From: Terriglobia bacterium
GTDB taxonomy: Bacteria; Acidobacteriota; Terriglobia; Acidiferrales; UBA7541
Assembly: GCA_963803105.1 (NCBI GenBank)
Contig: CAWDLF010000003.1
Location: 25,518 to 89,517, forward strand
Direction of reading: 5' to 3'
Length of the DNA stretch: 64,000 nt
This document shows, piece after piece, positions 1,349-53,768 of this stretch. Each line of letters starts with the position of its first letter. Position 1 is the stretch's first letter. Both the position numbers and the translations under genes were made by a program. Under the pieces are notes generated by a model that was not told the DNA's origin, ran no database searches, and was given only the letters and a program-made list of their open reading frames with translations.

Positions 1349-2518
1349 TTATTTCGCTACTTCGGTCAACGGAGTCATCGGTATAACCGCTGTTACGGTT
1401 GTTCCGGTCGCCCGGGAATCGATCTGCAAATCCCCACCCAATTCACGGACGCGCTCGCGCATACTGGCGATACCGACACCAGACTGGGTTGTTTCTGTAT
1501 TTCTGTCACCGAATCCCTTTCCGCGGTCTTCAATGGCGAGCGATACACTTCCGTTTGCCAGGCGAATCCGAATCGTGGCTGTTTGACTGCCAGAGTGACG
1601 ATGGATGTTTGTGAGGCTCTCCTGCAACACTCGGAACAGAACTATTTCAAGCGATTGCGACAATCGGTCCAGACCCGGGGGCATGTCGAGCGCTACCGCG
1701 ATTCCACTTCGTTGAGTGAATCCCTCGACGTACCAGGGAATTGCCGAACTCAGGCCCATCTCCTCCAACAAGGGAGGATGCAACAAATAAGATATCGTGC
1801 GGACTTCGGCGGTGCAGCGGTCGAGCAGATCGAGCGAGTCTTGCAGCGGTTTTTCGGCGTCGGCGCGGTTTTGCAGTGCTAGTTCGCAAGACATCTTGAT
1901 CGCTATAAGGTATTGTCCGACGCCGTCGTGGAGTTCGCGCGCGATCCGGCGGCGTTCTGCATCCTGGACGCTCATTACCTGGGAGGAGAGATGCCGCAGT
2001 TCCGCGTTGGCCCTCTCGAGCTGTATGCGCCGATCTTCCGACAGGCGCGCAGCTGTTACCATGGCGTGCGCCTGGGGAACCAAACTGGGAAGGGCGATGG
2101 CGGTAACGACCGAAGCCATGGCAGTCACGAGCTTCACGTCGCCGCCCAGCCAGTACAGCGGATACCACAACACAATGATCTCCATGAAGTGCGTGAACCC
2201 GCAAGCCACGATGAACAGCCCGAATGCAAGGAACATCCAGCTGAACGGAATTTCCTTACGGGTCCTCCAAACCAGGTACACCAGCGTGCCTGAGATTGCC
2301 ACGTATGAAAGCCAGATGGCCGCATCGCTTCCCACATGCAGCGCGATTAACTGTCTATTGTAGAGGTAGCACATCGCGTGCGGCATGAAGTTCGAGGCGA
2401 ACGTATTCAGCACCGTGGAGGGAATCATGAGCAAAGTGGCAGCGCTGAGCGCCAGGACCGTGGCGGAAGCGCCTAGAACAAGCTTGTTCTGCGTGATTGC
2501 TGAAGCCGACACTCTCAT
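1349..2518 (-). CDS. Sensor histidine kinase, HisKA_3/NarL-type, with an N-terminal ETR1-like ethylene/Cu-binding membrane domain
   Basis: The H-box is ELHDGVGQYL, and the HATPase_c motifs are LTNIHRHSG, DRGKGF and GVGIASMRERV. N-terminal helices align with plant ETR1 (GSDAAIWLSY...; GLFIVACGFTHFMEI versus ETR1 GAFIVLCGATHLINL). Confidence 0.9.
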   Translation of the reverse strand: MRVSASAITQNKLVLGASATVLALSAATLLMIPSTVLNTFASNFMPHAMCYLYNRQLIALHVGSDAAIWLSYVAISGTLVYLVWRTRKEIPFSWMFLAFGLFIVACGFTHFMEIIVLWYPLYWLGGDVKLVTAMASVVTAIALPSLVPQAHAMVTAARLSEDRRIQLERANAELRHLSSQVMSVQDAERRRIARELHDGVGQYLIAIKMSCELALQNRADAEKPLQDSLDLLDRCTAEVRTISYLLHPPLLEEMGLSSAIPWYVEGFTQRSGIAVALDMPPGLDRLSQSLEIVLFRVLQESLTNIHRHSGSQTATIRIRLANGSVSLAIEDRGKGFGDRNTETTQSGVGIASMRERVRELGGDLQIDSRATGTTVTAVIPMTPLTEVAK

Positions 2519-4247: not shown

Positions 4248-4622
4248 TTAAGGACGGGAACAAAGGCTTTTTAGTGATGGCAGTAGCTGGTCGACGATTC
4301 CCACGGATTTTGGGAAAACCTTGGCGAACCCAGCTTCGCGAGCATTCTTGAGGAGCTGATCGTTGGTGTGCATCGTGAACATAACCATTGCTGTATCGGG
4401 TGCGATGAGCTTGATTTGCCGCCCGGCCTCTAGCCCGTTCATAACGGGCATCTGCAAGTCCAAGATTGCTATGTCCGGGCGAAGTTCCTTCACCTTTTCA
4501 ATAGCCACCTGACCGTTTTCGGCTTCGCCGATCACTTGCAAATCAGTTCCGTGCTCGATGCAGGCTCGAAGCGAGCGGCGGACGAGAGGATTGTCGTCGA
4601 CGATCAGAACTTTGCAAGACAT
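4248..4622 (-). CDS. Single-domain response regulator (CheY-like receiver)
   Basis: KVLIVDDN, ILDLQMP (phospho-acceptor Asp) and the FPKS region (conserved Lys), 124 aa. A GAAGG RBS is present. Confidence 0.9.
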   Translation of the reverse strand: MSCKVLIVDDNPLVRRSLRACIEHGTDLQVIGEAENGQVAIEKVKELRPDIAILDLQMPVMNGLEAGRQIKLIAPDTAMVMFTMHTNDQLLKNAREAGFAKVFPKSVGIVDQLLPSLKSLCSRP

Positions 4623-4820: not shown

Positions 4821-5546
4821 TCAGTGGACGTCCACTTCGCGGAACCCGAATCCCTTTAGCATGCCGGAAATCGTGCTTCGTGCATTGTCAGCCGCGAGCT
4901 TGAGGATGCCATTTTGCAGCGCGGCTTGTTGGAGCTCGTGTTCTGCTTCCTCGCGGACTTCGCTTTCGAGGTTGGGGTCGGGAGAAGAGAAAAGACCGGT
5001 GTCTCGTGAATACACTTTTGTCAGGGCATTGTCGATTCGCGTGCTCAGGACTTCCGCTGGAGGCAAATGGATCGACACCTTTTGCCCTTCGACCACTACG
5101 TCGCCCGGCTGCAGACCGGCGAGGTCGATGCCGCCAACCACTTCTCCGTGGACAACCAGGAGCAGACGGTCACCCGCGAGAAATGCCGGTAGATAAGGAT
5201 TGGCGTGCTCACCCGAAATAATCTTGTCGGCCGTGTAGCTCACCGTCTCGAGCCGCTGAAGTTCCTGGATCTGGCGAACCACGGTCGGCTGGTCCACGTT
5301 GAACTCCGTGCGACCTCCGCGCAAGATGCTTAATAGATGCAATAGCCCGAGGCCCGTGGAAAACCAAACCAGCGCGCCGATCAGGACGACTGCAAGAATC
5401 GCACCCAGGAGAACTCCCAAAATCCAGGACTGCGCGCTGCGCGCAGTTCGTTGCGCTTCGTTAGCGACCGGTTCGTTAGCGACGGGCGTATTGTTGATCG
5501 TCATATGTTTGCCAGCCACTACAGTGTAGACCAAGCGAAAAATCAT
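4821..5546 (-). CDS. DUF4230-like membrane-anchored protein
   Basis: N-terminal TM helix, then the DUF4230-like pattern VVRQIQELQRLETVSYT...GGIDLAGL...VSIHLPPAEVLSTRID. Confidence 0.6.
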   Translation of the reverse strand: MIFRLVYTVVAGKHMTINNTPVANEPVANEAQRTARSAQSWILGVLLGAILAVVLIGALVWFSTGLGLLHLLSILRGGRTEFNVDQPTVVRQIQELQRLETVSYTADKIISGEHANPYLPAFLAGDRLLLVVHGEVVGGIDLAGLQPGDVVVEGQKVSIHLPPAEVLSTRIDNALTKVYSRDTGLFSSPDPNLESEVREEAEHELQQAALQNGILKLAADNARSTISGMLKGFGFREVDVH

Positions 5547-6776: not shown

Positions 6777-9041
6777 CTAGCGAGAATTGAATGTAGGCGA
6801 TGGCGCCGGCTTCTCCGGGTACAAACGCTCGAACTCCGGGTCGCCATGAAGAATGAGGAGATCCGGGTCGCGGCGGGCCCAGATGGAATCTTTCGAACCT
6901 GCTTCCCAGGCCTTACGCAAGGCATCCAGAGCCTCTGGCTTTCTTTTCAGACCGCAGTACACGCAGGCTGCGTTATAGAGAATAGAGGCTTCGTTGGCGC
7001 GCAACGTGACAGCCAGATTGAGCTCGCGCAAGGCGTCTTCCTCCCGCCCCAAAGCTGCATATTTGGCGCCTAGCAGAACGCGGGCCCGCGCGTCCTCAGG
7101 TACTTGTTTTAAGTGGTTTTCGAGCGCGACGACAACCCGGTGGGACATGTTGCGTCCAGCCTCTTCTTTGCCCATGGCGCCCAGAGAATTCATGATCGGC
7201 ACGTAGACGTTGTAGTCCTCGCCGCTTGCTTCAATCGCGGCCTCCGCAACATCCAGAACTTCCTGGTAGCGTCCCGCGGCGAACAGGGCGCGGCCCAGCA
7301 GATAGTAGGCGCCGTCGCAGTCACGCCTGCGCTCGATGGCCTTCTTGACCATGCGCACAGCTTCGTCGTGGAGTCCAGCGGCGTAAAGCACCCAAGCCTG
7401 GCTGACGTGCGTTTCGGGCAAGTCCCAACGCAGTGCTACGGCTCTGCTGGAAGCCTCGCGCGCGCGTTCAATCCAAACCTCATCGCGGGTGAAGATGGAG
7501 TAGTACATCGCGCAGGCGTTAGCGCAGGCGGCGTAAGCCAGGGCGAAGCTGGGGTCCATAGCCACTGCGTTTTCGAACATCTGCAGAGCGAACTCAACGT
7601 CCTGACGCGTCTGCCGCCGGGCGTAACGCTTGCCGCGCAGGTATTGATCATAGGCCTGCGGGTTTTCCGTGGGCTTGTCGGCGAGCGCCTCCAGTTCCTG
7701 CGGGGAAAGCGTCACGCGCAAAGCTTCTGCAATTTTGCGGGCCATCTCGTCCTGTACTTCAAAGACGTCCTTCATTTCGCGATCGAAGCGTTCGGACCAA
7801 AGCGGAAAATCGGTATGCGTGTCCACAAGTTGAGCGCTGATGCGCACACGCGTGCCGGAGCGACGCAAGGTACCAGTGAGGACGTAGGCTGCGCCCAGCT
7901 GTTGGCCGATCTGCGCAGGTGTCACCGACTTGTCGCGGAACGTCAGAACGGTAGGCCGCGAAAAGGTGTTCAGGCCACGAATTTTGGAGAGCTCGGTGAT
8001 GATGTCTTCGGTGATGCCATCGCGCAGATATTCGTCTTCCTTGGAGCCGCTCAAATTTTCAAAATAGAGAACGGCCACCGACTTTCCCGCCTGTTTTGGG
8101 GCGCCGGAGTCCGAATCGGTCCTTTCCTTCGAGCGGCGCTTACTGGATTCGAGGTCGCGCTTCAGCCGGCTCAGGTCGGTTTTCAGGTCAGTGGCCGTTT
8201 GGCAACGAAGATTGCGATCCTTTTCGAGGGTCTTATCCAGGATGCGCACAAAGTCCGCGGGCAGCGACGGATTTAATTCTCCGGCCGGCCTAGGGTCGCG
8301 GTTTAGGATCGCTTCGAAGATGACCGCCGACGTATCTCCCTGAAAGGGAAGCGTCCCAGTTGCCAGCTGATAGAGAACGGTTCCGGTGGAAAAAAGGTCT
8401 GTGCGGGCGTCCACAAGTTGGCCGCGGGCCTGCTCGGGAGACATATAGGAGACCGTGCCGATGGCCGAGCCTGGCGAAGTCAGTTCCAACTCGGCTGCCG
8501 AGGTCTTCCCTTGGCCGGTCGTGGTTCCCGGCGCAACTTCGCTCCGTGTTATCTTGGCCAGACCGAAATCCAGAATTTTTATCTCGCCACGGTCGGTGAG
8601 GAAGAGATTGGCGGGCTTGATGTCGCGGTGAACGATCCCCTTGGCGTGGGCCGATTCGAGTGCGTCTGCGATCTGCACGGAGAGCGGGAGCAGCCTATCC
8701 ATGTCCATCGGCTGGCGGGTCATCTTCTGTGCGAGTGTCTGCCCCTCCAGTAACTCCATGACGATGAAATAGCGGAGCTCGTGCTGCTCGATCGCGTGAA
8801 TGGTGCAGATGTTCGGGTGGTTGAGAGACGAAGCAGCCCGCGCCTCGCGCTGGAAGCGCTCGAGCGACTGAGTGTCCTGAGCCATTTCCGGGGGAAGGAA
8901 CTTCAGCGCCACGCGCCGGCCGAGCTGGGAATCCTCGGCTTCGTAAACAACGCCCATTCCGCCGGCTCCGACCTGTTTGATGATGTGGTAATGAGCGAGC
9001 GTCTGTCCCACAAGAGATGAAGTAGCGGCCATAAGAGGCAC
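6777..9041 (-). CDS. Ser/Thr protein kinase with a C-terminal TPR repeat region
   Basis: GAGGMGVVY, VALKFL, HRDIKPANL, DFGLA and SYMSPEQ kinase motifs, followed by TPR-like repeats in the C-terminal 300 aa. Confidence 0.9.
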   Translation of the reverse strand: MPLMAATSSLVGQTLAHYHIIKQVGAGGMGVVYEAEDSQLGRRVALKFLPPEMAQDTQSLERFQREARAASSLNHPNICTIHAIEQHELRYFIVMELLEGQTLAQKMTRQPMDMDRLLPLSVQIADALESAHAKGIVHRDIKPANLFLTDRGEIKILDFGLAKITRSEVAPGTTTGQGKTSAAELELTSPGSAIGTVSYMSPEQARGQLVDARTDLFSTGTVLYQLATGTLPFQGDTSAVIFEAILNRDPRPAGELNPSLPADFVRILDKTLEKDRNLRCQTATDLKTDLSRLKRDLESSKRRSKERTDSDSGAPKQAGKSVAVLYFENLSGSKEDEYLRDGITEDIITELSKIRGLNTFSRPTVLTFRDKSVTPAQIGQQLGAAYVLTGTLRRSGTRVRISAQLVDTHTDFPLWSERFDREMKDVFEVQDEMARKIAEALRVTLSPQELEALADKPTENPQAYDQYLRGKRYARRQTRQDVEFALQMFENAVAMDPSFALAYAACANACAMYYSIFTRDEVWIERAREASSRAVALRWDLPETHVSQAWVLYAAGLHDEAVRMVKKAIERRRDCDGAYYLLGRALFAAGRYQEVLDVAEAAIEASGEDYNVYVPIMNSLGAMGKEEAGRNMSHRVVVALENHLKQVPEDARARVLLGAKYAALGREEDALRELNLAVTLRANEASILYNAACVYCGLKRKPEALDALRKAWEAGSKDSIWARRDPDLLILHGDPEFERLYPEKPAPSPTFNSR

Positions 9042-9104
9042 ATGTTAGATGGTCGCAAGAGGCGAGTCAACGACGCGAGACGCTTTCAAGCGATTGCCTA
9101 TGGT

Positions 9105-10328
9105 TTACTGCGTCTTCTGGGCAATTTCTGTTAGGTCTTCTGTTATGCCGGCGATGGGTGACAACGTGGGGGGCGGGGTCAACTGCACCAAGAGCATCCT
9201 GCTATCGGAGTAATACTCCTGTCCGGTGCTAGTCCGCGCCTTGAATACAGGCGCGTCGGACTGCAGATACTCCTCGGCCGCGGGATGCGTCGCGATTGCC
9301 AGATCCTGGCCGATGAAGTCGCGTTCGGCGTCCACATTCGGGTCAATTCTGTGCAGAAGCTTCAACTTATGTTTCACGAAGTGAATTGAGACGTCGTGGG
9401 TTGCTGCGCCCACCCACAGAGGACTGCCGTCCACGGTGCGATCGGTTTTCCATATCCGCAGGTGGTGCCGCCGCCCAACGATAGCGGTAGGATCAGGCAT
9501 CACATAGGAATAATCCTGCGGCTTGCCAAAAACGTAGAGCCAGTTCATCGGCAATTTCGCGTAGTGCTGTCGTTGCCAGAATAGATGCCAAGCGATCCGA
9601 GGCGGCGTGCGTTTATCTACCTTGAGCCAACCGGATTGAGCGAAAGCCCGTTGAAGGTCGTCTTCTTTGGCTACAAACATTAGATTCAGCATATCGCCCT
9701 CGCGTCCCTCAGCGTCCAAGGCTCGCGGCGGTAGCACTTGCATGATTTCGCTGAGTTCGGAGGGACCTTCCCGCGCAACAGGCAAATCTGCGGCTTCCAG
9801 ATCGGAATCGTTCTGCGTATACGCGGTGAATTGCGCGCCTTTCAAGACCACACTGTCCTGGCCGCGAGACAGCAGAAACACCGGTGAGGCGGGCAGATAG
9901 ATCGCCGCGGTGACGGCTACACGCAATCCCATGCGGATAGAGTGTGATCTGCCTTTGAATTTCTTGCTGCCGATCAATGGGGCCATCTCCCCGGTGGAGA
10001 GTTCTACGGAATCGAGATTGACGACTACGGCGCCCCCTATTCCGAGAGGTCGTTTTCCTCGCACTCGAAGGACCGAACCCGTCGCCGGAGCTCCTGAACG
10101 GATCACGGTGAATCCTTCGACAACTACGTCATCTACGACTGTGAAGTCGAGGCGATCGCCCTTGCGAGCATGTGCGGAGGAAATGGTTTGCGCGATTTGG
10201 AGTTTTACGGGAGTGCCACTTTCCACGGCCACCTTAGCTGGGCCGGCAGGTAGGCCCTGGCCGAAAAGGCCGCTGGGCAGCAGTATAAGTGCCCAGACCA
10301 ATAAGACCCGGCACGCCGCGCTGGACAT
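9105..10328 (-). CDS. Secreted LssY C-terminal domain-like protein
   Basis: Signal peptide. The C-terminal half (WLKVDKRT...HHLRIWKT...PLWVGAATHDVS) resembles the LssY_C family. Confidence 0.6.
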   Translation of the reverse strand: MSSAACRVLLVWALILLPSGLFGQGLPAGPAKVAVESGTPVKLQIAQTISSAHARKGDRLDFTVVDDVVVEGFTVIRSGAPATGSVLRVRGKRPLGIGGAVVVNLDSVELSTGEMAPLIGSKKFKGRSHSIRMGLRVAVTAAIYLPASPVFLLSRGQDSVVLKGAQFTAYTQNDSDLEAADLPVAREGPSELSEIMQVLPPRALDAEGREGDMLNLMFVAKEDDLQRAFAQSGWLKVDKRTPPRIAWHLFWQRQHYAKLPMNWLYVFGKPQDYSYVMPDPTAIVGRRHHLRIWKTDRTVDGSPLWVGAATHDVSIHFVKHKLKLLHRIDPNVDAERDFIGQDLAIATHPAAEEYLQSDAPVFKARTSTGQEYYSDSRMLLVQLTPPPTLSPIAGITEDLTEIAQKTQ

Positions 10329-10497
10329 TTGGCAATCCTTTCTCTTCAGGCCAAACCGCTACTCGCGCGGCCGCGTGGAAAGCGCCATAGGTTCCTGACG
10401 CTGTCAGCTTAGCTTAGTAAAATTAAATGCGGTGGGCGATAGAAAATCTGTTCAAAACTGAACACCAGCGAGAATATTCATGCGGCTCGATCAGTAG

Positions 10498-11565
<1,068 letters not shown>

Positions 11566-11587
11566 GCGCCAGTTAGGAGCAGGGCAA

Positions 11588-11950
11588 ATGCCAGCACCGA
11601 AAGATGCTTTAAGGGAGCAGCTCTCCCGACATCGCGAAATTGACATCACCGTGACGGGCAGAAAATCGGGACGCTCTATCTCGATCCCTGTTTGGTTTGT
11701 ATTAGAGGGCGAGAAGCTTTACCTGCTCCCGGTGCAGGGGTCGGATACGCAGTGGTACAAAAACGTGCTCAAGGATCCGTCGATTCGGATCGGTGCGCGG
11801 GGCACGGAAACCGGAATCAAAGTTACTCCTATTACGGACGCCGCGGAGGTGTCGTCCGTGGTCGAGAAGTTTCGCGTAAAGTACGGGGCCGCCGACGTGA
11901 AGAAATACTATTCGAAATTGGATGTCGCGGCTGTCGCGCAGATTTCGTGA
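11588..11950 (+). CDS. Nitroreductase/quinone reductase family (DUF385-like) small protein
   Basis: The pattern TGRKSGRSISIPVWF...QWYKNVLKDPSIRI is typical of the deazaflavin-dependent nitroreductase-like family. Confidence 0.55.
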   Translation: MPAPKDALREQLSRHREIDITVTGRKSGRSISIPVWFVLEGEKLYLLPVQGSDTQWYKNVLKDPSIRIGARGTETGIKVTPITDAAEVSSVVEKFRVKYGAADVKKYYSKLDVAAVAQIS

Positions 11951-11968
11951 CTTTTCGGCGTTAGAGTC

Positions 11969-12949
11969 CTACCGATAGCCCTTGCCCCAACTGTAAGTGT
12001 ACTTCACGGCAAAGCCGGTATGCGCGGCGCCGTTTTGGTGCACGAGCGTCCTAGCGAACTCGAAGACGAGCACGTTCTGGGGATCGGGAGAGATATTCAG
12101 CTCGCTTCCCAGAGTGAAGTTCTGTTGCGTATTGTTCTGGTCCACGCCGTCGACGAACGTGACGCCGCCGAACGAGTAGCGCGTATCGAGAGAGGCCCAG
12201 ATTTTGGAGGTGAAGGAATAACTGATGTGTCCTTCGAGTCCGGGTAGTGCGTGTTGCCGGAGAGTTTCCGCTCCATGATAAGAGGTGTTGTCGGTGTAAA
12301 AATAGGCGTTGGCGTAGGCGTCGAACTCCCACTTCTTTCCGGGTCCGAAGGGGTACGCCACGGCGAATTCTGGTTTGAACGACCAGCGATTGGAACCCAG
12401 GTTGAGAAGTTTGTCGGCTTGATATGTTCCGGTGGGCGCGGTGACGGTAAGGCTCAAGCCGATAGCGGTGGTCTGCTGGTATTTTGCGAATTGCGCCACA
12501 CTCAGCGCGGGCCCTCCCTTTAGCAACACAGCCCACTCATAGCTAGAGTCTCCGGTGCCGGTACTGGAGCTATGGACGTCAGTGCCGTTCACCGAGCCGT
12601 CGAGGCCGGCGACCGGGACGCTGACCTCCACCCAGGACAGACGGTGGGCGAAACTGAAATCGCGCGTGTAGTTAATGACTCCCTGATTCAGGTTGAGTTC
12701 CGCCCCCGCGATGATCAGCGAAGTATCAATCGAGGTATTCGAGTGCGAGTAGTCGTAGTCAAGCTCGAGCTGATTGACGCCTACGGGAGTATTGTCATAA
12801 GTGCGCGGGTCCGTGAACTGCGCGACCAGCGGGCGCGGAAAATGAAGGACGGCGAGCGAAAAAAGGACCAAGAGCAGCCGCTTGTGCACGGCACAATCTA
12901 GCAGACCCCCCGATTGGCCGTAAACATCTGCGTACGCCGGTTTGCGCAT
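11969..12949 (-). CDS. Outer-membrane beta-barrel protein (MetA-pathway/transporter-like)
   Basis: Signal-like N-terminus, alternating amphipathic beta pattern, and a C-terminal aromatic end (...YSWGKGYR). The start is uncertain (a GTG at 12889 is possible). Confidence 0.55.
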   Translation of the reverse strand: MRKPAYADVYGQSGGLLDCAVHKRLLLVLFSLAVLHFPRPLVAQFTDPRTYDNTPVGVNQLELDYDYSHSNTSIDTSLIIAGAELNLNQGVINYTRDFSFAHRLSWVEVSVPVAGLDGSVNGTDVHSSSTGTGDSSYEWAVLLKGGPALSVAQFAKYQQTTAIGLSLTVTAPTGTYQADKLLNLGSNRWSFKPEFAVAYPFGPGKKWEFDAYANAYFYTDNTSYHGAETLRQHALPGLEGHISYSFTSKIWASLDTRYSFGGVTFVDGVDQNNTQQNFTLGSELNISPDPQNVLVFEFARTLVHQNGAAHTGFAVKYTYSWGKGYR

Positions 12950-13063
12950 TGGGTCGATAGCACTGACGACAAATTCGTTGTGTCCAGGGCAGAAGAGGGC
13001 GTACGATTCGTCTGAAACTGAGCCAAATCGGAATCTCGATTGGAGTCTCTTGGTAGCGCGCTA

Positions 13064-13426
13064 ATGCTGATCGAAGTCACCGAAAAAGACGATATTTGCC
13101 TCGTGCGTTTCGAGGGGCGTTTCGTGTCTGGCTGGGATCCGGACTACGTCCGCGCCAAGGACGAAATCGCAGGACGCCGCTGCGATAAGGTACTGGCCGA
13201 CTTCCGCGATGTTTCGCAGATCGGCTCGACAGGCATCGGCTTCATCGTGGCCATTTACGTTTCCGTCCGCAGACATTCCCAAGGCCGTTTCGTAGTGGTG
13301 GGTTTACAGCGCCGTGTGCGCGAAGTGTTCGACATCACGCGTGTCAGCACGGTGATCCCCTTGGCAGAAGATATGGCATCCGGTTTGGCGGCACTCCGCT
13401 CCGAGACCTCAGCCGCAGCGGGTTGA
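13064..13426 (+). CDS. STAS-domain protein (anti-sigma-factor antagonist-like)
   Basis: MLIEVTEKDDICLVRFEGRF...SQIGSTGIGFIV...RVREVFDITRV is a typical SpoIIAA/STAS layout. Confidence 0.7.
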   Translation: MLIEVTEKDDICLVRFEGRFVSGWDPDYVRAKDEIAGRRCDKVLADFRDVSQIGSTGIGFIVAIYVSVRRHSQGRFVVVGLQRRVREVFDITRVSTVIPLAEDMASGLAALRSETSAAAG

Positions 13427-13485
13427 GACTACTCCCCCGGTAACCCGACTTGTGATGCAGGCAAAGCCCCCACTGGATTGTTGCG

Positions 13486-14661
13486 TCAAGCATGAGCCCG
13501 ATCCGCAGCGTGCGTATGCTCCGCAGCAGCGTGCGAATGTTCCGCTGTAGCATGCGAGTGCGACCGTTCCCCCTGCTCGTAAATAGCTTTGGCTGAACCG
13601 ACGATGTGCGGATCAGGGGCAGTGACGACATCCGTGTCCTTACCGGCATAGGGAATGGTGTAGAGGATGTGCCTGATTGCGTTGAGTCGCGCGCGTTTCT
13701 TGTCATCGGAGCGCACGATCGTCCAGGGCGCGTCAGCGGTGTCGGTGTAAAAAAGCATCGCCTCTTTGGCTTTGGTATAGGAGTCCCACCGGCCCAGGGA
13801 TTCCACATCCATCGGGCTGAGCTTCCATTGTTTCAGGGGATCTCGCGCCCGGCCGAGAAACCGTCGTAGTTGCTCTTCGCGGCTGACGGAAAACCAGAAT
13901 TTGTAGAATCGGATTCCGCTACGCACCATCATCCGCTCGAATTCCGGCGTCTGGCGCATGAATTCCAGATATTCGTGCGGGGTGCAAAAGCCCATCACGT
14001 GCTCGACACCCGCACGGTTGTACCAGGAGCGGTCGAAGAAGACGATTTCACCTTTGGTGGGAAGTTTTTCGATATAACGCTGGAAATACCACTGTCCCCG
14101 CTCGGTATCCGAAGGTTTTGCCAAAGCCACGACTTTTGCGCCGCGAGGATTGAGATTTTCCGTGAAGCGCTGGATCGTTCCTCCCTTGCCAGCGGCGTCA
14201 CGCCCTTCGAAGAGCAGCACGATGCGTTCACCGACTTCCTTTGCCCAAGCCTGCATCTTGACCAGTTCGATCTGCAGCAATTGGATCTTTTTCAGATACT
14301 CGGAGTTCTTCATTTGCTTGTCATACGGGTAATTGGAACTGATGATGTCCCTTTTACTCTTCGCCTTCTTTACCTTGGCGATCAGTTCATGGGGAATGCT
14401 GGTCCGAACCTGTTCATCAATCAGTTCGATCATGGGAAAGGCGCTTTTCTTCTCCTTCGCTTTCTGCTTCTCAGCTTTCTCGAGGGCCTTTATTTGTTTC
14501 TTTTCCTGCTTGCGGCCTGGTTCTGGCAAAACCACCAGCCCCGCGGGAATGCTGGGCCGCAGCTGTTCGCCGATCAAGTCCGTCATGGGGAAAGTGCCGG
14601 CGAGCAGTTTGGTGGAGCTCTTTTTGCCGTTCGATTTATGATTCTCGGTTTCGGCCTTCAT
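13486..14661 (-). CDS. ppk2: Polyphosphate kinase 2 with an N-terminal repeat extension and a His-rich tail
   Basis: GRDAAGKGGTI (Walker A), FDRSWYNRAGVEHVMGF and other PPK2 motifs. The N-terminal motif is duplicated, as FPMTDLIGEQLRPSIP and FPMIELIDEQVRTSIP. Confidence 0.9.
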   Translation of the reverse strand: MKAETENHKSNGKKSSTKLLAGTFPMTDLIGEQLRPSIPAGLVVLPEPGRKQEKKQIKALEKAEKQKAKEKKSAFPMIELIDEQVRTSIPHELIAKVKKAKSKRDIISSNYPYDKQMKNSEYLKKIQLLQIELVKMQAWAKEVGERIVLLFEGRDAAGKGGTIQRFTENLNPRGAKVVALAKPSDTERGQWYFQRYIEKLPTKGEIVFFDRSWYNRAGVEHVMGFCTPHEYLEFMRQTPEFERMMVRSGIRFYKFWFSVSREEQLRRFLGRARDPLKQWKLSPMDVESLGRWDSYTKAKEAMLFYTDTADAPWTIVRSDDKKRARLNAIRHILYTIPYAGKDTDVVTAPDPHIVGSAKAIYEQGERSHSHATAEHSHAAAEHTHAADRAHA

Positions 14662-27731: not shown

Positions 27732-29105
27732 TTACTCGGCGGGATCGGAAACGCCGATTTTGGAGAGGCGATAGCGGAGGGCATTGCGCGACAACCCTAG
27801 GGCGCGCGCGGCCTGGCTCTTGTTTCCGTTGGCGCGCCGCAAGGCTTCGCGGATCATTTCATCTTCCCATTGCTCGAGTGAGACGCCCTCGGGCAGCGCC
27901 GCGGACGCGCCGGCGACCGCGCGCGGCGGGTCAATATCGAGGTGAATGTCGGCGGCGTCGAGCGTCGGACCCTCGGATAGGGTGACGGCTCGCTCGATGA
28001 TATTTTCCAGCTCGCGCACGTTACCGGGCCAGTGGAAATCCATCAGCAGCTTCAGCGCTTGCGGAGTGAGGGTGCGGGCTGGGGTGCCGGACTCGCGAGC
28101 GAACTTTTCGAGGAAGAAATTTGCGAGCGCCGGAATATCTTCTTTGTGATCGCGCAACGGAGGGACGTCGATGGCCACCACGTTGAGCCGATAGTACAAA
28201 TCTTCACGGAAGGTGCCGTCCTCGAGCGCGGCGCGCAGATCCCGATTGGTCGCGGCGATGAGGCGCACGTCGACTTTTAAAGTTCTCGTTCCTCCCAGCC
28301 GCTCGAATTCGCGCTCCTGCAAGACGCGCAAAAGCTTTACCTGAATCGCGGGGGGCACGTCGCCAATTTCGTCGAGGAACAGCGTTCCCTTGTCGGCCAA
28401 CTCGAATTTGCCGGGCTTGGTTGTCGTTGCGCCCGAGAAGGCGCCCTTTTCGTATCCGAAGAGTTCGCTTTCCAGGAGGTTTTCGGGAATCGCCGTGCTG
28501 TTAATTTTGACGAAGGGCCCGCCGGCGCGGTGAGAGTGTTCGTGAATGGCGCGCGCGATCAGATCTTTTCCCACGCCGCTTTCACCGCCAATCAGCACGG
28601 TGGAGTTCGTCGGCGCCACGCGTTCGACCAGAGCCAGCACAGCCTGCATCTTGGTGCTGCGCGCGACGATGTTTTTGTATTCGTAGCGGCGGCCGAGCTC
28701 CTCGCGCAAGGTACGATTTTCTTCGCGCAGCTCGTGGGTCGCCAGCTCCTTGCGAATCACCAGCACCAGCTCGGCCAGGGAAAAGGGTTTCAGTATGAAG
28801 TCGCTGGCGCCGGCCTTCATGGCCTCCACCGCGGATTCCACCGTTCCGAAGGCGGTCATGATGATCACCGGGATGGTGGCGTTGACGCGTTTGACGGCCT
28901 GAAGAAATTCCAGCCCGCTCATACCCGGCAATTTGAAGTCGGTGAGCACGATGTCAAAGCGTTCTTTGCCGAGCAGCTGCAAGCCGGCTTCGGCATCGGG
29001 CGCGGCGCGCGTGAGGAAACCCTCGTCGGCGAGCTGCAGCTCGATCACGCGCCGCAACTTGGTTTCGTCTTCCACGATCAGGATCGACTGCTTTTCGCGC
29101 GTCAT
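27732..29105 (-). CDS. Sigma-54-dependent response regulator (NtrC/Fis family)
   Basis: Receiver domain ([21 protein letters not shown]), AAA+ domain ([22 protein letters not shown]) and a C-terminal HTH ([20 protein letters not shown]). The start is set at MTREKQS (29105); the upstream extension of the ORF is Arg-rich junk. Confidence 0.9.
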
Positions 29106-29116
29106 TTTGGATGCGC

Positions 29117-30430
29117 TCACCGGTGAACGGACCCCACTGGTGCCGGAAGATCGGTCTTGATCGCGGTGACGGACGCGGCGGGGAGGAACACGTGAAACGT
29201 CGCGCCGCCGGAAGCGTTGTCTTCGAGGCGAATCCATCCCCGATGGTCGTCGATAATCTTCGCCACAATCGCCAAGCCCATGCCGACGCCGTCCTTCTTC
29301 GATGTGAAAAACGGGTTAAAGATCTGCTCGCGCAATGCCGCGGGAACCCCCGGCCCGGTGTCCTGAACCATCACTCCCACGCCGTCGCGGCCCTGCGAAG
29401 ATTCAGGAGCAGCGGAGAGCCGCAGGACACGCTCGCGGGTATCGGCCGGCTCCATCATGGCCTGGTAAGCATTCTGAATCAGATTTACGAAAACGCGTTC
29501 GCACAGTTGTTCGTCGGCCAGAACGGGCGGCAGATGGCGAGGTTCGTCGCGCTCGACACGCACATGCGCATCGGGGAATTGGGCGTTCACGGCGTCAAAG
29601 GCACGGTCAAGGATTGGTGAAAGCTGGTGCGGCTGCGGCTCAAGCTGTGAGGGCCGCGCAAAATCCAGAAAGCGGGCGATCAGCTCATTGAGGCGGTTCA
29701 CTTCCGAGGAGATGTATCCAGCAAGCTCGCTTTCGATCGGCTGCGCTTCCCGAAGTTTCTTGTTCAGCATTTCTGCTGAGCCCTTGATGACCGCAAGCGG
29801 GTTGCGAATTTCGTGCGCAAGGCCGGCGGACATTTGCCCCAGTGCGGCCAGGCGTTCGGACCGGCGCGCGTCGGCTTCGGCGCGCTGCAATTGCCGGTTG
29901 GTCTCTTCCAGCGTTTCCGAGAGCGCTTGATAGCGCGCAACCTGCCGACGGTTCTCTACGGCGAAACGGTTCACCAGCACGGCGGCGATAAAGAAGAAGA
30001 GGACGCGCGTTGTAAGGATCCACGCTCCCTCGGGAGTGAGTTCGTACTCCTGAAGCGCCGGCCAAAGAAACGAACAGTAGGCAAGGGAAGCGAGTGCGGT
30101 CCACAGAAGCGTGCCGATCGGGCCGAAATACATCGCTGCCGTTACTACGGGCAAATAGTAGATCGGGTAGTACGTGCTATTGATGCCCACTTCCTGCGTG
30201 TGATCGAGAAGCAGCGTCGCCAGCGCGATCTTGATCAAAACGCTGTAGTAGCGTCCCCTGCTCGGTAGCCAGGCGACGAGCCGGCCCTCGAGAAGCTGGA
30301 ATACAATGATGGCTAGGAGGGTCAACTGCTTGTGAACTTCATCGATGGGCGGGAGAAACGCGAGGCAGACCACGAACAGCACGAACACCATGTCGATCCA
30401 ATCGAACGCGGATCGCTTGCGGTCGAGCAT
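29117..30430 (-). CDS. Membrane sensor histidine kinase (NtrB/AtoS-like) paired with the NtrC-family regulator
   Basis: Multi-TM N-terminus, H-box GLAHEIRNPLAVI, and DTGPGVP and GMGLAIV boxes. The start is set at MLDRKRS (30430); the longer ORF overlaps cobA and is not credible. Confidence 0.9.
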   Translation of the reverse strand: MLDRKRSAFDWIDMVFVLFVVCLAFLPPIDEVHKQLTLLAIIVFQLLEGRLVAWLPSRGRYYSVLIKIALATLLLDHTQEVGINSTYYPIYYLPVVTAAMYFGPIGTLLWTALASLAYCSFLWPALQEYELTPEGAWILTTRVLFFFIAAVLVNRFAVENRRQVARYQALSETLEETNRQLQRAEADARRSERLAALGQMSAGLAHEIRNPLAVIKGSAEMLNKKLREAQPIESELAGYISSEVNRLNELIARFLDFARPSQLEPQPHQLSPILDRAFDAVNAQFPDAHVRVERDEPRHLPPVLADEQLCERVFVNLIQNAYQAMMEPADTRERVLRLSAAPESSQGRDGVGVMVQDTGPGVPAALREQIFNPFFTSKKDGVGMGLAIVAKIIDDHRGWIRLEDNASGGATFHVFLPAASVTAIKTDLPAPVGSVHR

Positions 30431-30537
30431 GGCGGGCAGGCCCCTCCCTGGATGACCTATTGTGAAGCTAATAAATTCTAGACGAATCTTACACGAAGCG
30501 GGTTCCTTCCGTTGTTCGGTGTGCTCGCGGGTTCTGG

Positions 30538-31332
30538 CTAACGGCGGGAGAAAGTTGCCGCTGCTTCGTCGAGGAGGGCCGTTAATTCCGGTGCGCGCTG
30601 TCTCCGACGTGCTCCCTGAAGTGACCTGCCCACGAGCAAAATGGCCGGAGCCTCTGCGTGCAGCGTGCGGCCGAGTTCTTCGAGAGTGATGTATCGAACG
30701 GTCTGCTCGGGCGTGCTGACGTGGGAGACGAGCGCGGCGGGGGTTTGAGGGTCGAGGCCCGCGGCAACGAGCTCGTCGCGCAGGCGCGCGAGGTTGCTGC
30801 CCGGCATATAGATCACCAGGACGCCGTCGTGATGCGCCAAACTCTTCCAGTCGGGCCTGGCCTCCTTGTCGCCGTGTCGCGCCGGATGGGCGCTCACGAA
30901 AATGGCGTGCGAGCTCTTGCGCCGGTCGGTGAGTGAAATTCCGAGAGAAGCAGCCGCGGCCATTCCGGCGGTGATTCCCGGGATCACCTCGAAGGGCACG
31001 CCCGCGGCTTCGAGCGCGTCGATCTCTTCTGCCAGCCGCCCGAAGATTCCCGGGTCGCCGCCCTTTAAACGCGCCACGGTACGCCCTTCGCGCGCCGAGC
31101 GAATCATGCGAGCGTTGATCTCCTCCTGGGTCATCGTCTTTGCTCCGCACCGTTTGCCCACGCTGGCGACCAGTGCGGACGGGCTGGCAAGCGCCAGGAT
31201 GGGCGCGGGCACCAGGTCGTCGTGCAGGATCTCATCCGCCTCCCGTAAGATGCGGTGGGCCTTGAGGGTCAGCAAATCCGGGTCTCCCGGGCCTGCTCCA
31301 ACGAGATAAACGGTGGTCGGTTTCATGGGCAT
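30538..31332 (-). CDS. cobA: Uroporphyrinogen-III C-methyltransferase (SUMT)
   Basis: VYLVGAGPGDPDLLTLKA, RLKGGDP.IFGR and IPGITA motifs. Confidence 0.85.
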   Translation of the reverse strand: MPMKPTTVYLVGAGPGDPDLLTLKAHRILREADEILHDDLVPAPILALASPSALVASVGKRCGAKTMTQEEINARMIRSAREGRTVARLKGGDPGIFGRLAEEIDALEAAGVPFEVIPGITAGMAAAASLGISLTDRRKSSHAIFVSAHPARHGDKEARPDWKSLAHHDGVLVIYMPGSNLARLRDELVAAGLDPQTPAALVSHVSTPEQTVRYITLEELGRTLHAEAPAILLVGRSLQGARRRQRAPELTALLDEAAATFSRR

Positions 31333-49775: not shown

Positions 49776-51338
49776 TCACGGCGTCTCGCGCCGACGGATG
49801 TGGCTGCGGATGAAGCAGACCGACAGAAGGGACGCCAGCAGCATGGAGGCGACTCCTATGCCCAACCCCACGTGCAGCGCATGGACGAACGATGCGCGGA
49901 CGGCGTGTGCGATTACCGGCGACGACCCTTGGCCAACGTTGCCCGCTGCGGCTCGCGTGCCCAGTCGCGCCACAAGCGCCTGTGCCTGCGATAGCGGAAC
50001 GCCGGCAGCGACCAGTTGAGCGGAGAGGCCGCGAGTAAAAGCCGTCGTAACGATAGCCCCGAGCAGCGCGATGCCGAAAACGCCGCCCAGTTCGCGGCTC
50101 GTATTGGTTGCCGCCGAAGCGATTCCGGCGTGGCGTATCTCGACGGAGCCCATCACCGCCGCGGTCATGGGCGTCATGGTCATTCCCATACCGGCGGCCA
50201 GCACCATGAAGGCAGGTAGAAGGACGCCCAGGTAAGTCGAGTTGGTCTGCGTGCGCAGCAGGAGGGCCATGCCGCATGCCGCGACCAAAGTGCCGCAGGC
50301 CATCAGCCAGCGCGAACCAAAGCGATCTGATAGACGCCCGGAAATAGGCGCAGCGAAAAGAATAACTCCGGAAAACGCCAGCAATCGCGTGCCCGCCTGC
50401 ACCGGCGAATACTGCAGAATATTCTGCATGTAGAGCGTGAGAAAGAAAATGCTGCCGAACATCGCAAAAAAGACGGCCGCGGCTACAGCGTTGGCGGCGG
50501 CGAAAGTAGGTATACGAAAGAAAGACAGAGGAAACATTGGCGACGGCCGCCGCGATTCGACGATCACAAAAACCGTGAGCAACACAGCGGCCAGCAAGAA
50601 CATGCCGATGATCACCGGATTCGTCCATCCGCGAGCGTTACCTTCAATCAGCGCAAACACCAGGCAGAACAGCCCCGCCGTGCCGGTGATCAATCCCGGA
50701 GGATCCAGCCGACGGCTGCGCGTCGCGTCCTTCGATTCGCGCACCACGAAGTAAGTCAGCGTGAGCCCGACGATGCCCGTCGGTATGTTGATGAAGAAGA
50801 TGCTGTTCCAGGAAAAGTGTTCGACCAGGTAGCCGCCCGCCACTGGGCCAATAGCCGCCGCCACGCCGGACATAGCCGCCCAAATTCCGATCGCCGACCC
50901 TCGCTCACGGCCGTGAAACGTGGCGCTGATGATGGAGAGCGACCCGGGCAAAAGCGCCGCGGCACCCACCCCCTGGGCAGCGCGGAAGGCGATCAGCTGA
51001 GACGTGCTGGACGACAAGCCGCAGGCGAGCGATCCCAGCGAGAAAAGAACCAGCCCGCCCATGAACAGTCTTTTGCGTCCGTAGAGGTCGCCGAGCGCTC
51101 CGGCCGTCAGCATGAATGACGCGAACGTCAGCGTGTAGGAGTCGATGATCCACTGCAGGCCGGAGACGCCGGCGCCAAAATCCCTTTGGATGGTCGGAAG
51201 CGCGACGTTGAGTACTAGGTTGTCGAGCTGTGGCATAAACAGCCCAAAAACCATGGCGATCAGGACGAGCCACTTGCGTTTGTCTTCGGAGTGTCCTTCG
51301 GCGGGCGAATGCGCCGGCTGAGTGAGAGTCTGTGCCAT
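49776..51338 (-). CDS. MFS transporter, DHA2 (EmrB/QacA, 14-TMS) family
   Basis: 520 aa. LDNLVLNVALPTIQRDF and GALGDLYGRKR motifs. Confidence 0.9.
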   Translation of the reverse strand: MAQTLTQPAHSPAEGHSEDKRKWLVLIAMVFGLFMPQLDNLVLNVALPTIQRDFGAGVSGLQWIIDSYTLTFASFMLTAGALGDLYGRKRLFMGGLVLFSLGSLACGLSSSTSQLIAFRAAQGVGAAALLPGSLSIISATFHGRERGSAIGIWAAMSGVAAAIGPVAGGYLVEHFSWNSIFFINIPTGIVGLTLTYFVVRESKDATRSRRLDPPGLITGTAGLFCLVFALIEGNARGWTNPVIIGMFLLAAVLLTVFVIVESRRPSPMFPLSFFRIPTFAAANAVAAAVFFAMFGSIFFLTLYMQNILQYSPVQAGTRLLAFSGVILFAAPISGRLSDRFGSRWLMACGTLVAACGMALLLRTQTNSTYLGVLLPAFMVLAAGMGMTMTPMTAAVMGSVEIRHAGIASAATNTSRELGGVFGIALLGAIVTTAFTRGLSAQLVAAGVPLSQAQALVARLGTRAAAGNVGQGSSPVIAHAVRASFVHALHVGLGIGVASMLLASLLSVCFIRSHIRRRETP

Positions 51339-51544
51339 GGGTCCTTCTGAAATTGTTGCCCGGCATGACTCATCACCGGTGCCACTTGCGAGCGAGCAGT
51401 TTTTGTATTATCGGGGAGCGGCAACGTCAAGTCAACACGCCGGTTGCTGTCGATGTGGTCCGCTTTGGGCGAAACCAAATGTTCCGGCGTCGCGTTTCAT
51501 TCTTGAGCCTGTGCTGCGGCAGGAACCTGTACAATGGCCACGCG

Positions 51545-52942
51545 ATGCTAGCTCCCACGGACTTGACGCAGACTTCCGAAGACACGGGTTCCGTGCGGGA
51601 TGGCGGTCGGGCGCGCATTGGCCTGGCGATTGGCCTTGCCCTTCTGCTTTTCAGCGCCGTAGCCGCCGGTGTGACCATCGTCCAGCTTCATCGCACCGCG
51701 ACCCGCGTGGCGCATTCCATCAGCATTGAGGTTGCGCTTGCCGATCTGGAATCGAGCCTAAGCGCCGTAGGCCGGGCGCGCGCCGGGTATGTAGCGTCGG
51801 GAGACGATGCGGCCTACGCGGATTATCAGTCGATAGCGGCGCAGATTCCTCTAAAGCTCGATCGTATACAGTCTCTCGAGAAGGGAATTCCCGCGCACGG
51901 CGATTTTCAGGCCCAACTGAGGGCGCTGGCGGAGAAGCGTCTGGCGATTAACACGCAAGCCGTCGAGGCCCGCAGGGCGGGCCAACCGGTGTCGCTCGCC
52001 GATGTGACTGCTCAGGTCGTGACGGTCAGCAATGAGCTTGGGGTGCTACTGCACGACATGGAATCGCACGAAGAGGAATTCACGCGCGAGCGGCAGAGCA
52101 TGTCCGATCGCCTCTTTCTGGCCGTACAGACGATCCTCGCCGCCGCCTTCATTCTTGCCTTGGGCTTGCTCTACTGGAACTACCGGCTCCTGCGTGCCGA
52201 GTTGGTTGAAAAGGAGCGCGCCGAGAAGCTTTCGCGGGAAAGCCGCGATTCCATGCGTCAGCTGAGCGCCCGGCTGCTGCAGGTTCAGGACGAGGAGCGG
52301 CGCAGGCTCTCGCGGGAATTGCACGACAGCCTTGGGCAATCGCTAGTGCTGGCGAAGATGAACCTCTCGTCGCTGGCGGAAAACAAGATGCTCGGCGGCC
52401 TCGTCGACGAATCGCTCAAGTATTTGGATCAATCCATCGCCGAGACGCGCACCATCTCCTACTTGCTTCACCCGCCCTTGCTCGACGACATCGGCTTCGC
52501 CTCGGCTGCAGAGTGGCTCGTCGAGGGGTTCGGGCAGCGCAGCGGCATCGAAACTCAGATTTATATCTCTGACCGCAAGGTGCGATTGCCGCATTCGATT
52601 GAGCTCGCTCTTTTTCGGATCCTGCAGGAGTGCCTTACGAACATTCACCGGCACTCGGGAGCTTCGCGCGCCGAGGTCTTTTTCGAATCGAGTCCGCGGG
52701 AAGCGATACTGAAGGTGCGTGATTACGGCAAAGGTATGGAGAAGGATATGCTCGCCCGATTCCATGTCGGCGATTCCCACGGGGGTGTGGGCTTAGCGGG
52801 CATGCGTGAACGCGTGCACGAGCAGGGTGGTCGCATCGAAATCCTGTCGGAGGGCGACGGCACGGCGGTCGTGGTGACGATGCCGGTTGCCGAAGCGCCG
52901 GCGCAGCGCCCCGCGCGTGCTCCCCTGTCATCGCCTGCCTGA
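51545..52942 (+). CDS. Sensor histidine kinase (CHASE3-like periplasmic domain plus HisKA_3/HATPase_c)
   Basis: The H-box is ELHDSLGQSL, with LTNIHRHSG, DYGKGM and GVGLAGMRERV. The start is uncertain (51479 or 51545). Confidence 0.85.
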   Translation: MLAPTDLTQTSEDTGSVRDGGRARIGLAIGLALLLFSAVAAGVTIVQLHRTATRVAHSISIEVALADLESSLSAVGRARAGYVASGDDAAYADYQSIAAQIPLKLDRIQSLEKGIPAHGDFQAQLRALAEKRLAINTQAVEARRAGQPVSLADVTAQVVTVSNELGVLLHDMESHEEEFTRERQSMSDRLFLAVQTILAAAFILALGLLYWNYRLLRAELVEKERAEKLSRESRDSMRQLSARLLQVQDEERRRLSRELHDSLGQSLVLAKMNLSSLAENKMLGGLVDESLKYLDQSIAETRTISYLLHPPLLDDIGFASAAEWLVEGFGQRSGIETQIYISDRKVRLPHSIELALFRILQECLTNIHRHSGASRAEVFFESSPREAILKVRDYGKGMEKDMLARFHVGDSHGGVGLAGMRERVHEQGGRIEILSEGDGTAVVVTMPVAEAPAQRPARAPLSSPA

Positions 52943-53111
52943 AATTCTCCTCGGTACTCAGGAACTACTACAGGGAACAAGGTATTCCGCAGTCCTCCTG
53001 GTACTCGTAGGGTAGGGCGTGGAGTACAATATGCATACAGTCCGAGTGGCGTGCGCCGTTTGCACTTCCCCTAGCCCCGGGGCAACGCTCACACACCATC
53101 GGGAGATGAGA

Positions 53112-53768
53112 ATGAAAAACCTTCGAATCCTGATTGCCGACGACCACGATTTGATGCGCCGGGGCGTTCGCACCCTGCTGGAGGCTCATCCGGGCTGGGA
53201 GGTTTGCGCCGAGGCCCCCACGGGGCGTGAGGCCGTAACGAAGGCTGAAGAGCTCAAGCCGGATATCGTGATTCTGGACATCAGCATGCCGGACTTGAAT
53301 GGTTTAGAGGCCGCGCGCAGGATCCGCAGCGTATCTCCGAATACCGAAATTTTAATTCTTTCCATGCACTATTCCGACCAGCTGATTCGAGAGCTTCTAG
53401 AGGCCGGCGTGCGCGGCTACATCATCAAGTCGGATTCCGATCGCGATTTGATCATCGCGGTTGAGACTCTGGCAACTCACAAGCCGTTCTTCACGCCGCG
53501 CGCCACCGAAGTGATTTTGGGCAATCTTCAAGTGGCAGGCACGCGCGCGCAGTTGCCGAGTACGATTCGTGAGCGGCTGACTTCGCGGGAGCGGGAGATC
53601 GTGCAGCTGCTGGCCGAGGGCAAGAGCAGCAAGGAAGTAGCCTCTTCGCTGTGCATCAGCGTGAAAACGGCGGAGACGCATCGCGCGAACATCATGCGCA
53701 AGCTGCAATTGCACACGGTGACCGAATTGGTCCGCTACGCGGTGCGCAACCAGATCATCGAGGCTTAG
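53112..53768 (+). CDS. NarL/FixJ (LuxR-type HTH) response regulator
   Basis: ILIADDHDLM, ILDISMPDLNG and a C-terminal LTSREREIVQLLAEGKSSKEVA HTH. A GGGAG RBS is present. Confidence 0.9.
   Translation: MKNLRILIADDHDLMRRGVRTLLEAHPGWEVCAEAPTGREAVTKAEELKPDIVILDISMPDLNGLEAARRIRSVSPNTEILILSMHYSDQLIRELLEAGVRGYIIKSDSDRDLIIAVETLATHKPFFTPRATEVILGNLQVAGTRAQLPSTIRERLTSREREIVQLLAEGKSSKEVASSLCISVKTAETHRANIMRKLQLHTVTELVRYAVRNQIIEA

Follow-up and report, generated by a model that had tools for sequence, protein, structure and literature searches.

The sensor histidine kinase gene at positions 1349 to 2518 of a 64,000-nucleotide stretch of a Terriglobia genome (Acidobacteriota; GenBank assembly GCA_963803105.1, contig CAWDLF010000003.1, positions 25,518 to 89,517; hereafter the window) encodes a variant of a known family of sensors, to which the ethylene receptor ETR1 of plants belongs. 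In this variant serine stands at the position of Pro36 of ETR1, the sensor is coupled to a HisKA_3 transmitter, and no response regulator gene is linked to the kinase gene. Bacterial homologues of ETR1 are in themselves expected by specialists; the new element is the loss of Pro36, which extends throughout a clade. Ethylene binding by the kinase is plausible but unproven.

Judged from its sequence, the membrane part of the kinase is a true homologue of the domains that bind ethylene in ETR1, SynEtr1 (Synechocystis) and AzoEtr1 (Azospirillum brasilense), with a similarity far beyond chance. The Pfam family PF25487 (ETR1_N, "Ethylene receptor 1-like, N-terminal domain") is matched by residues 57–152 at 111.1 bits (gathering score 27; E = 3.2e-32), over profile positions 2–96 of 97. 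The first-pass annotation of the window, made from the letters alone, had proposed a helix-for-helix alignment with ETR1 for positions 2069–2356 (kinase residues 55–150), and all three of its pairings were reproduced by BLASTP, which gave 29% identity over 118 amino acids (aa) to the N-terminus of ETR1 (E = 2e-11). The numbering of the ETR1 sequence used as the query fits the published mutant positions C4, C6, D25, A31, I62, C65, H69, K91 and A102. The match to AzoEtr1 was closer (40% identity, 142 aa, E = 7e-30), the reference being read from plasmid NZ_CP012915.1 of A. brasilense Sp7, where the 525-aa open reading frame (ORF) has the length given in the paper. Three consecutive membrane helices were delineated in the sensor by hydropathy and an AlphaFold2 (AF2) model (residues 55–86, 93–116 and 122 to about 148), and no second ETR1_N domain was found in the window.

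The ETR1-type sensors form a large family that has been catalogued before and of which some bacterial members have been characterised. The domain profile matched 9,620 cluster representatives (50% identity) at E ≤ 1e-3, 7,594 at E ≤ 1e-10 and 3,227 at E ≤ 1e-30. An identical kinase protein is present in the ENA contig ERZ25039484:contig_57284 (399.8 kb) and in a Logan assembly, and this exact protein already carries the PF25487 tag in a sequence collection. The first-pass annotation had thus overstated the rarity of the domain, and its statement that none had been characterised outside cyanobacteria is outdated, as AzoEtr1 was shown to bind 14C-ethylene and to have an effect on the formation of biofilms and the colonisation of roots (PMC11819568, 2025).

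Binding-site residues and the Ser/Ala36 clade

Ethylene binding by ETR1 requires seven residues, D25, Y32, I35, P36, I62, C65 and H69 (PMC11819568, PMC6682694). I35, P36 and I62 are also named among the essential residues in PMC6586836, where an alanine substitution of P36 is described as abolishing binding; it is from these three reports that the essential role of P36 is taken here. The kinase has D65, Y72, I75, S76, I103, C106 and H110 at the seven positions, so that six of the seven residues are kept. The conservation of the helix-1 Asp and of the Cys-x3-His pair, already pointed out in the first-pass annotation, was borne out when the codons were checked (D65, C106/H110). The same annotation had taken non-conservation of further binding residues as evidence against an ethylene site, and this applies in part, since Pro36 alone is replaced. 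T109, K129, S136 and P148, the counterparts of T68, K91, S98 and P110 of ETR1, are also kept, and within the shared three-helix membrane domain D25, Y32, I35, I62, C65, T68, H69, K91, S98 and P110 of Arabidopsis ETR1 are therefore identical in the kinase. The residue mapping is validated by AzoEtr1, which has D-Y-I-P-I-C-H in the same alignment columns, in agreement with the published presence of all seven residues (PMC11819568).

D65, I75, I103, C106 and H110 are invariant in 32 diverse homologues (alignment A1), and the Asp, Cys, His and Lys of the site are invariant in 71 full-length representatives of the Ser/Ala type (alignment A3). C106 and H110, with the spacing C-x3-H, are invariant in A1, A3 and alignment A2. 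In ETR1 the Lys91–Asp25 pair is concerned with both affinity and signal relay (PMC10266040). That these buried Asp, Cys, His and Lys residues are so strictly conserved speaks for a functional metal site.

Just before helix 1 the kinase carries a P-H-x-x-C motif (P46, H47 and C50), in which H47 is near-invariant in A1, while in A3 both H47 and C50 show no or almost no variation. The two residues are also kept in AzoEtr1 (LPHGVC) and in those further bacterial Pro-type domains for which the match extends over the motif; the motif does not occur in plant ETR1, where Cys4 and Cys6 stand instead. The single Cys has been proposed as a possible dimerisation residue (PMC6682694). This proposal concerns the Cys, and the His of the motif is as strongly conserved. 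In addition, a membrane-embedded Glu, E113 (2180–2182, minus strand), lies three residues past His110 (T-H-F-M-E); it is kept in at least 90% of the Ser/Ala-type domains and in the Pro-type domain of Eleftheria, and is Asn in ETR1 and Ser in AzoEtr1.

The alignments indicate that Ser76 is a feature of the clade, neither an error nor a one-off. A scan of species-representative genomes recovered about 25 full-length relatives with 52–67% identity, all of them from metagenome-assembled genomes of Acidobacteriota or Terriglobales, including Ca. Acidoferrum, Ca. Sulfotelmatobacter and bins from peat, palsa and Danish soil, and remoter relatives were found in Verrucomicrobiota, Thermoanaerobaculia, Limnocylindria and others. 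The remoter loci have Ser in 45 cases, Ala in nine and Pro in three at the P36 position. Pro is entirely missing there from the 143 new best representatives (50% identity) that were obtained when 1.84 billion proteins were searched with the profile (Ser in 128, Ala in nine, Thr in two, Leu and Gly in one each, two unassigned). All collected domains together give Ser 266, Ala 38 and Pro 8; a Ser-type query had served as the seed of the searches, and these counts are biased accordingly. The opposite pattern was observed in 12 plasmid-borne domains of cultured bacteria, ten of which have Pro (in Azospirillum, Rhodovastum, Novosphingobium, Rhizobium, Blastomonas, Eleftheria, Pseudanabaena and Acaryochloris), the exceptions being Ser in the cyanobacterium Kovacikia and Ala in Deinococcus.

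The domain sequences (about 110 residues) were also placed in a neighbour-joining tree with ETR1 as the root and without support values, in which all 95 of the 95 non-Pro sequences fell into one clade that contained no Pro-type sequence. Other membrane positions, L82, A98, A135 and P144, also separate the clade from the Pro-type domains in a comparison with 8–15 Pro-type sequences only. Taken as a whole, the Ser/Ala form looks like a derived, coherent subfamily that is common in uncultured soil phyla. The literature searched yielded no discussion of naturally occurring variants at Pro36 and no paper that combines an ethylene receptor, ethylene binding and Acidobacteria.

Kinase architecture and coupling of sensor to transmitter

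The features of the kinase are listed in Table 1. The ETR1_N sensor is preceded by an extra N-terminal hydrophobic helix (TM0), which appears as a hydropathy peak at residues 12–40 and as an AF2 helix, and which is also found in the orthologues; it is a fourth membrane helix or, alternatively, an anchor of the signal type, and it resembles the extra helix of the plant subfamily-2 receptors. A Pfam scan of residues 153–187, between sensor and kinase, revealed no PAS or GAF domain. The transmitter is of the HisKA_3 type, as the first-pass annotation had read it. The H-box His197 and the N304, D331-x-G-x-G and G347-x-G boxes of HATPase_c are all there, and at the level of codons and motifs the reading frame and both the catalytic and the sensor motifs are intact. 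The protein is an intact, monocistronic two-component sensor kinase. The best NCBIfam match, MctS, covered the transmitter only, with 180 bits at a cutoff of 700, and was rejected as an identity.

The AF2 model of the kinase has a mean predicted local distance difference test (pLDDT) score of 82.9 and consists, in its N-terminal part, of helices at residues 6–30, 55–86 and 93–116, followed by one uninterrupted helix at 122–217. According to this model, the third membrane helix would extend through the 35-residue linker and become the HisKA_3 helix on which His197 lies. The nearest solved structure for the cytoplasmic half is DesK of Bacillus subtilis (sequence E = 2.8e-12; Foldseek E = 1.4e-10; PDB 3GIE, 5IUJ, 7SSJ), in which the last membrane helix likewise passes directly into the dimerisation helix; DesK differs in its membrane domain, which is unrelated, senses membrane thickness and fluidity and has no Cys/His/Asp metal site. 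A Foldseek search with the AF2 model matched cytoplasmic kinase cores only, DesK first, and no sensor-domain structure, and a comparison of the ETR1 N-terminus with PDB sequences gave no match, indicating that no ETR1-type membrane-domain structure is present in the PDB copy searched. With 389 aa and a sensor helix that leads straight into the phospho-acceptor helix, the kinase is a simple candidate, and would be a minimal model, for a first experimental structure of the domain.

A survey of the output domains that accompany the sensor, an analysis suggested by the first-pass annotation, was performed as Pfam counts in the 71 full-length Ser/Ala-type representatives. ETR1_N was found in 71 of 71, HATPase_c in 63, HisKA in 62, a fused receiver (Response_reg) in 34 and PAS domains (various models) in about 30; HisKA_3 occurred in four, HisKA_2 in three, and HWE_HK and GAF_2 in two each. 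The HisKA_3 coupling is thus a minority arrangement (about 6%) and is not unique to the kinase studied here.

Among the receptors described, AzoEtr1 shares with the kinase its nature as a bacterial histidine kinase, the N-terminal ETR1_N domain and the P-H-x-x-C motif before helix 1. However, AzoEtr1 is 525 aa long, is of the Pro type at the P36 position, carries a PAS domain that separates the sensor from the kinase part and has a classical HisKA, whereas the 389-aa kinase has Ser76, HisKA_3, no linked regulator and no PAS domain. SynEtr1 (slr1212 of Synechocystis PCC 6803) and GeiEtr1/2 of Geitlerinema also combine the ethylene-binding domain with a kinase that transfers phosphate to a response regulator (PMC6682694), but they differ in retaining, according to the papers, all seven binding residues (PMC6682694), in their PAS and GAF or cyanobacteriochrome modules, through which they sense light too, and in a DNA-binding partner regulator (slr1213). 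Compared with ETR1, the kinase has a single Cys50 in place of the Cys4/Cys6 pair, no GAF domain, HisKA_3 instead of HisKA and no fused receiver, in addition to Ser for Pro36.

Table 1. Positions in the window of the kinase, its domains and key residues, and an upstream receiver gene
Feature	Position	Strand	Basis or remark
Sensor histidine kinase, whole gene	1349..2518	-	389-aa ORF; TM0, ETR1_N, helical linker, HisKA_3, HATPase_c
TM0, extra N-terminal hydrophobic helix, residues ~6-30	2429..2503	-	Hydropathy and AF2
P-H-x-x-C motif, residues 46-50	2369..2383	-	Outside the Pfam model
ETR1_N sensor, residues 57-152	2063..2350	-	Pfam PF25487
Asp65 codon GAT (ETR1 Asp25)	2324..2326	-	Codon check; invariant in alignments A1 and A3
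Ser76 codon TCA (ETR1 Pro36 position)	2291..2293	-	Codon check; sole unconserved essential binding residue
Cys106-Gly-Phe-Thr109-His110, predicted Cu(I) site, helix 2 (ETR1 C65, T68, H69)	2189..2203	-	Alignment, codons
Lys129 codon (ETR1 Lys91), helix-3 partner of Asp in the proposed relay	2132..2134	-	Invariant in A3
Helical linker, residues 153-187	1958..2062	-	AF2 helix; no Pfam domain
HisKA_3 dimerisation/phospho-acceptor domain, residues 188-250	1769..1957	-	Pfam PF07730, E = 2e-14
Phospho-acceptor His197 codon	1928-1930	-	Codon check
HATPase_c catalytic domain, residues 292-382	1373..1645	-	Pfam PF02518, E = 1.9e-12
124-aa receiver-only response regulator	4248..4622	-	Response_reg, E = 1.2e-24; no output domain

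Proposed ligand and signal of the sensor

We propose that the three membrane helices, which the N-terminal helix precedes, could hold Cu(I) at Cys106 and His110 with Asp65 nearby, as expected from homology. Ethylene, or a closely related small unsaturated gas, might bind to this copper, and Ser76 in place of the helix-1 Pro would probably make the affinity or the release kinetics unlike those of the plant receptor. By analogy with the work on ETR1, binding may perturb the Asp65–Lys129 bridge and move helix 3, and the unbroken helix that the AF2 model predicts from helix 3 to His197 would carry the signal to the kinase core without a PAS or GAF relay and presumably change autophosphorylation.

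That the kinase senses ethylene in this way is, in our estimation, about an even chance. The orthologues come from metagenome-assembled genomes of peat, palsa and soil, habitats in which ethylene accumulates. Bacterial receptors of the ETR1_N family bind ethylene and signal by phosphotransfer (PMC11819568, PMC6682694). Several observations weigh against ethylene as the signal, and our estimate is no higher because Pro36, essential in ETR1, is replaced throughout the clade. With Ser76 in place of Pro36, the seven-residue set by which functional receptors are recognised is incomplete in the kinase, and the same position is Ser in 18 and Ala in six of 24 orthologues. Every receptor with demonstrated ethylene binding is of the Pro type and none belongs to the Ser/Ala clade (AzoEtr1, whose sequence was read directly; ETR1, SynEtr1 and GeiEtr1/2 according to PMC11819568 and PMC6682694). 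Furthermore, clustering of the neighbouring genes at the 24 orthologous loci revealed no conserved copper-handling, ethylene or alkene-metabolism genes beside the kinase, and in the genome of the window no regulator gene abuts the kinase gene or lies within 10 kb downstream of it on the source contig.

An alternative, which we regard as possible though less probable, is that the same fold and copper site serve another signal, such as the availability of Cu(I), the redox state or a different gas that binds copper (CO, NO, O2 or other volatiles). This would be consistent with the strict retention of the metal-site residues, and with a change at a residue outside the metal ligands that affects the whole Pro-free clade of the tree and is accompanied by the differences at the four other membrane positions. 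However, copper-homeostasis or redox genes are not conserved nearby, six of the seven ethylene-binding residues and the Asp–Lys relay are identical to those of proven receptors, and the differences between the clade and the Pro-type domains are drawn from the small Pro-type sample and the unsupported tree described above.

The two readings meet in a broader suggestion, which we put forward tentatively: the Ser/Ala36 form may be a distinct class of sensors, a large derived ETR1_N clade that dominates in uncultured soil Acidobacteriota and Verrucomicrobiota and that perceives either ethylene with altered affinity or faster release, or another copper-binding ligand. An altered affinity or faster release would suit bacterial signalling, as has been proposed for natural Asp25Asn variants. 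If such a class exists, surveys that require all seven residues would have overlooked much of the gas sensing done by soil bacteria. If ethylene is bound by the Ser36 clade, abundant, mostly uncultured soil phyla also perceive this gas of plants and soil, and the seven-residue rule for predicting functional receptors would need revision; if it is not, the clade is an example of a copper-based gas sensor that has been retuned.

It is unlikely, in our view, that the domain serves mainly to anchor the protein in the membrane or to sense the state of the membrane, as in the DesK-type HisKA_3 kinases, with its polar residues being structural. The DesK-like transmitter would fit such a role, as would the last membrane helix leading straight into the dimerisation helix, an arrangement seen in kinases that sense within the membrane. 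Nevertheless, buried Asp, Cys, His and Lys residues that are invariant in hundreds of sequences from several phyla can hardly be accounted for unless there is a site for a cofactor or ligand, and the fusion of the domain to many different outputs (HisKA, HisKA_3, HWE, PAS arrays and hybrid kinases) is what characterises a modular sensor of ligands.

Partner regulator and gene neighbourhood

Across the 24 orthologous loci only one neighbour of the kinase gene recurs, a receiver-only regulator of 126–165 aa (the "VVDDHDVVRQGVRLILR" regulator), which has a NarL-like receiver and no GerE domain. Its gene overlaps or abuts the kinase stop in 13 of the 24 loci, is divergent upstream in three and is absent in eight; AzoEtr1 is similarly followed by a 135-aa regulator without an output domain. 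In three of the loci (L007, L011 and L019) a second receiver-only regulator gene was observed about 420–530 bp past the kinase stop, on the opposite strand and convergent to the first. In the orthologues the usual partner of the kinase is receiver-only and not a DNA-binding NarL protein.

No remnant of a partner gene was detected in the window, either at 969–1348, the 380 bp after the kinase stop, or elsewhere. The kinase locus thus belongs to the unlinked group, with no remnant and no nearby downstream regulator, and "orphan", the term used in the first-pass annotation, is correct for the locus. Its further claim that the only NarL-type regulator of the window lies about 50 kb away and is paired with another kinase was also confirmed: the sole gene that encodes a receiver with a GerE domain (53109..53768) is paired with a CHASE3–HisKA_3 kinase (51332..52942). 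The transmitter of this second kinase, which like its regulator is encoded on the plus strand, is 44% identical to that of the ETR1_N kinase.

The first-pass annotation was right that no regulator gene adjoins the kinase, but it overlooked the 124-aa receiver of Table 1, which is encoded 1.7 kb upstream on the same strand. This protein is 42.7% identical to the receiver domain of the NarL-type regulator of the window. The best matches in the window to the partner of the orthologues are that NarL-type regulator (41–47% identity) and the 124-aa receiver (31–38%), and at such a low identity the latter is a candidate partner and not an orthologue. It is slightly closer to the second type of regulator at L007, L011 and L019 (38–42%) than to the first. 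Its gene lies directly downstream of that for a DUF4230 membrane protein (4821–5546, minus strand), and no kinase gene adjoins it. In the proposed pathway, the phosphate would pass to a receiver-only, NarL-like regulator that might work by protein contacts and not by DNA binding; in the genome of the window this unlinked partner could be the 124-aa receiver or a regulator encoded elsewhere.

Residue 205 (1904–1906, minus strand) is located eight residues past the acceptor His on the helix that faces the regulator. It is Ala in all 16 of the 16 regulator-linked orthologues and Ile in the kinase, and Ile, Met or Val is found in the kinase and in six of the eight unlinked orthologues. We infer that this change may reflect a re-wiring to a different partner that accompanied the lost linkage. 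That the kinase is instead a decaying, non-functional orphan whose partner was lost in this genome is very unlikely, as the missing neighbour, present in 16 of the 24 orthologues, is outweighed by the intact frame with all catalytic and sensor motifs, by the eight other orthologues that are unlinked too and by the I, M or V that most of them share in place of Ala205, which fits re-wiring.

The gene downstream of the kinase is a convergent methyltransferase-like ORF, and the upstream gene is divergent. Between the convergent genes there is a strong, G + C-rich hairpin with an 11-bp perfect stem (1219–1246; GGAGGCAGAGG...CCTCTGCCTCC). A T-run comes after it only on the plus strand, and the hairpin probably acts as the terminator of the plus-strand gene and possibly of both genes. 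In a scan of positions 900–2900 for promoters and terminators the counts were not above the shuffled expectation, and this hairpin was the sole notable feature. Also near the kinase, the region 6777–14661 encodes a Ser/Thr protein kinase with TPR repeats (6777–9041), an LssY_C protein, an aldo-keto reductase, a Phenol_MetA_deg outer-membrane protein and a PPK2 polyphosphate kinase; except for Ser/Thr kinase-like ORFs, which occur at three loci, none of these genes recurs beside the orthologous kinases. In addition, a third two-component pair is encoded on the minus strand of the window, in which a HisKA/HATPase_c kinase (29117–31150) is followed by a receiver-bearing sigma-54 activator (27732–29237).

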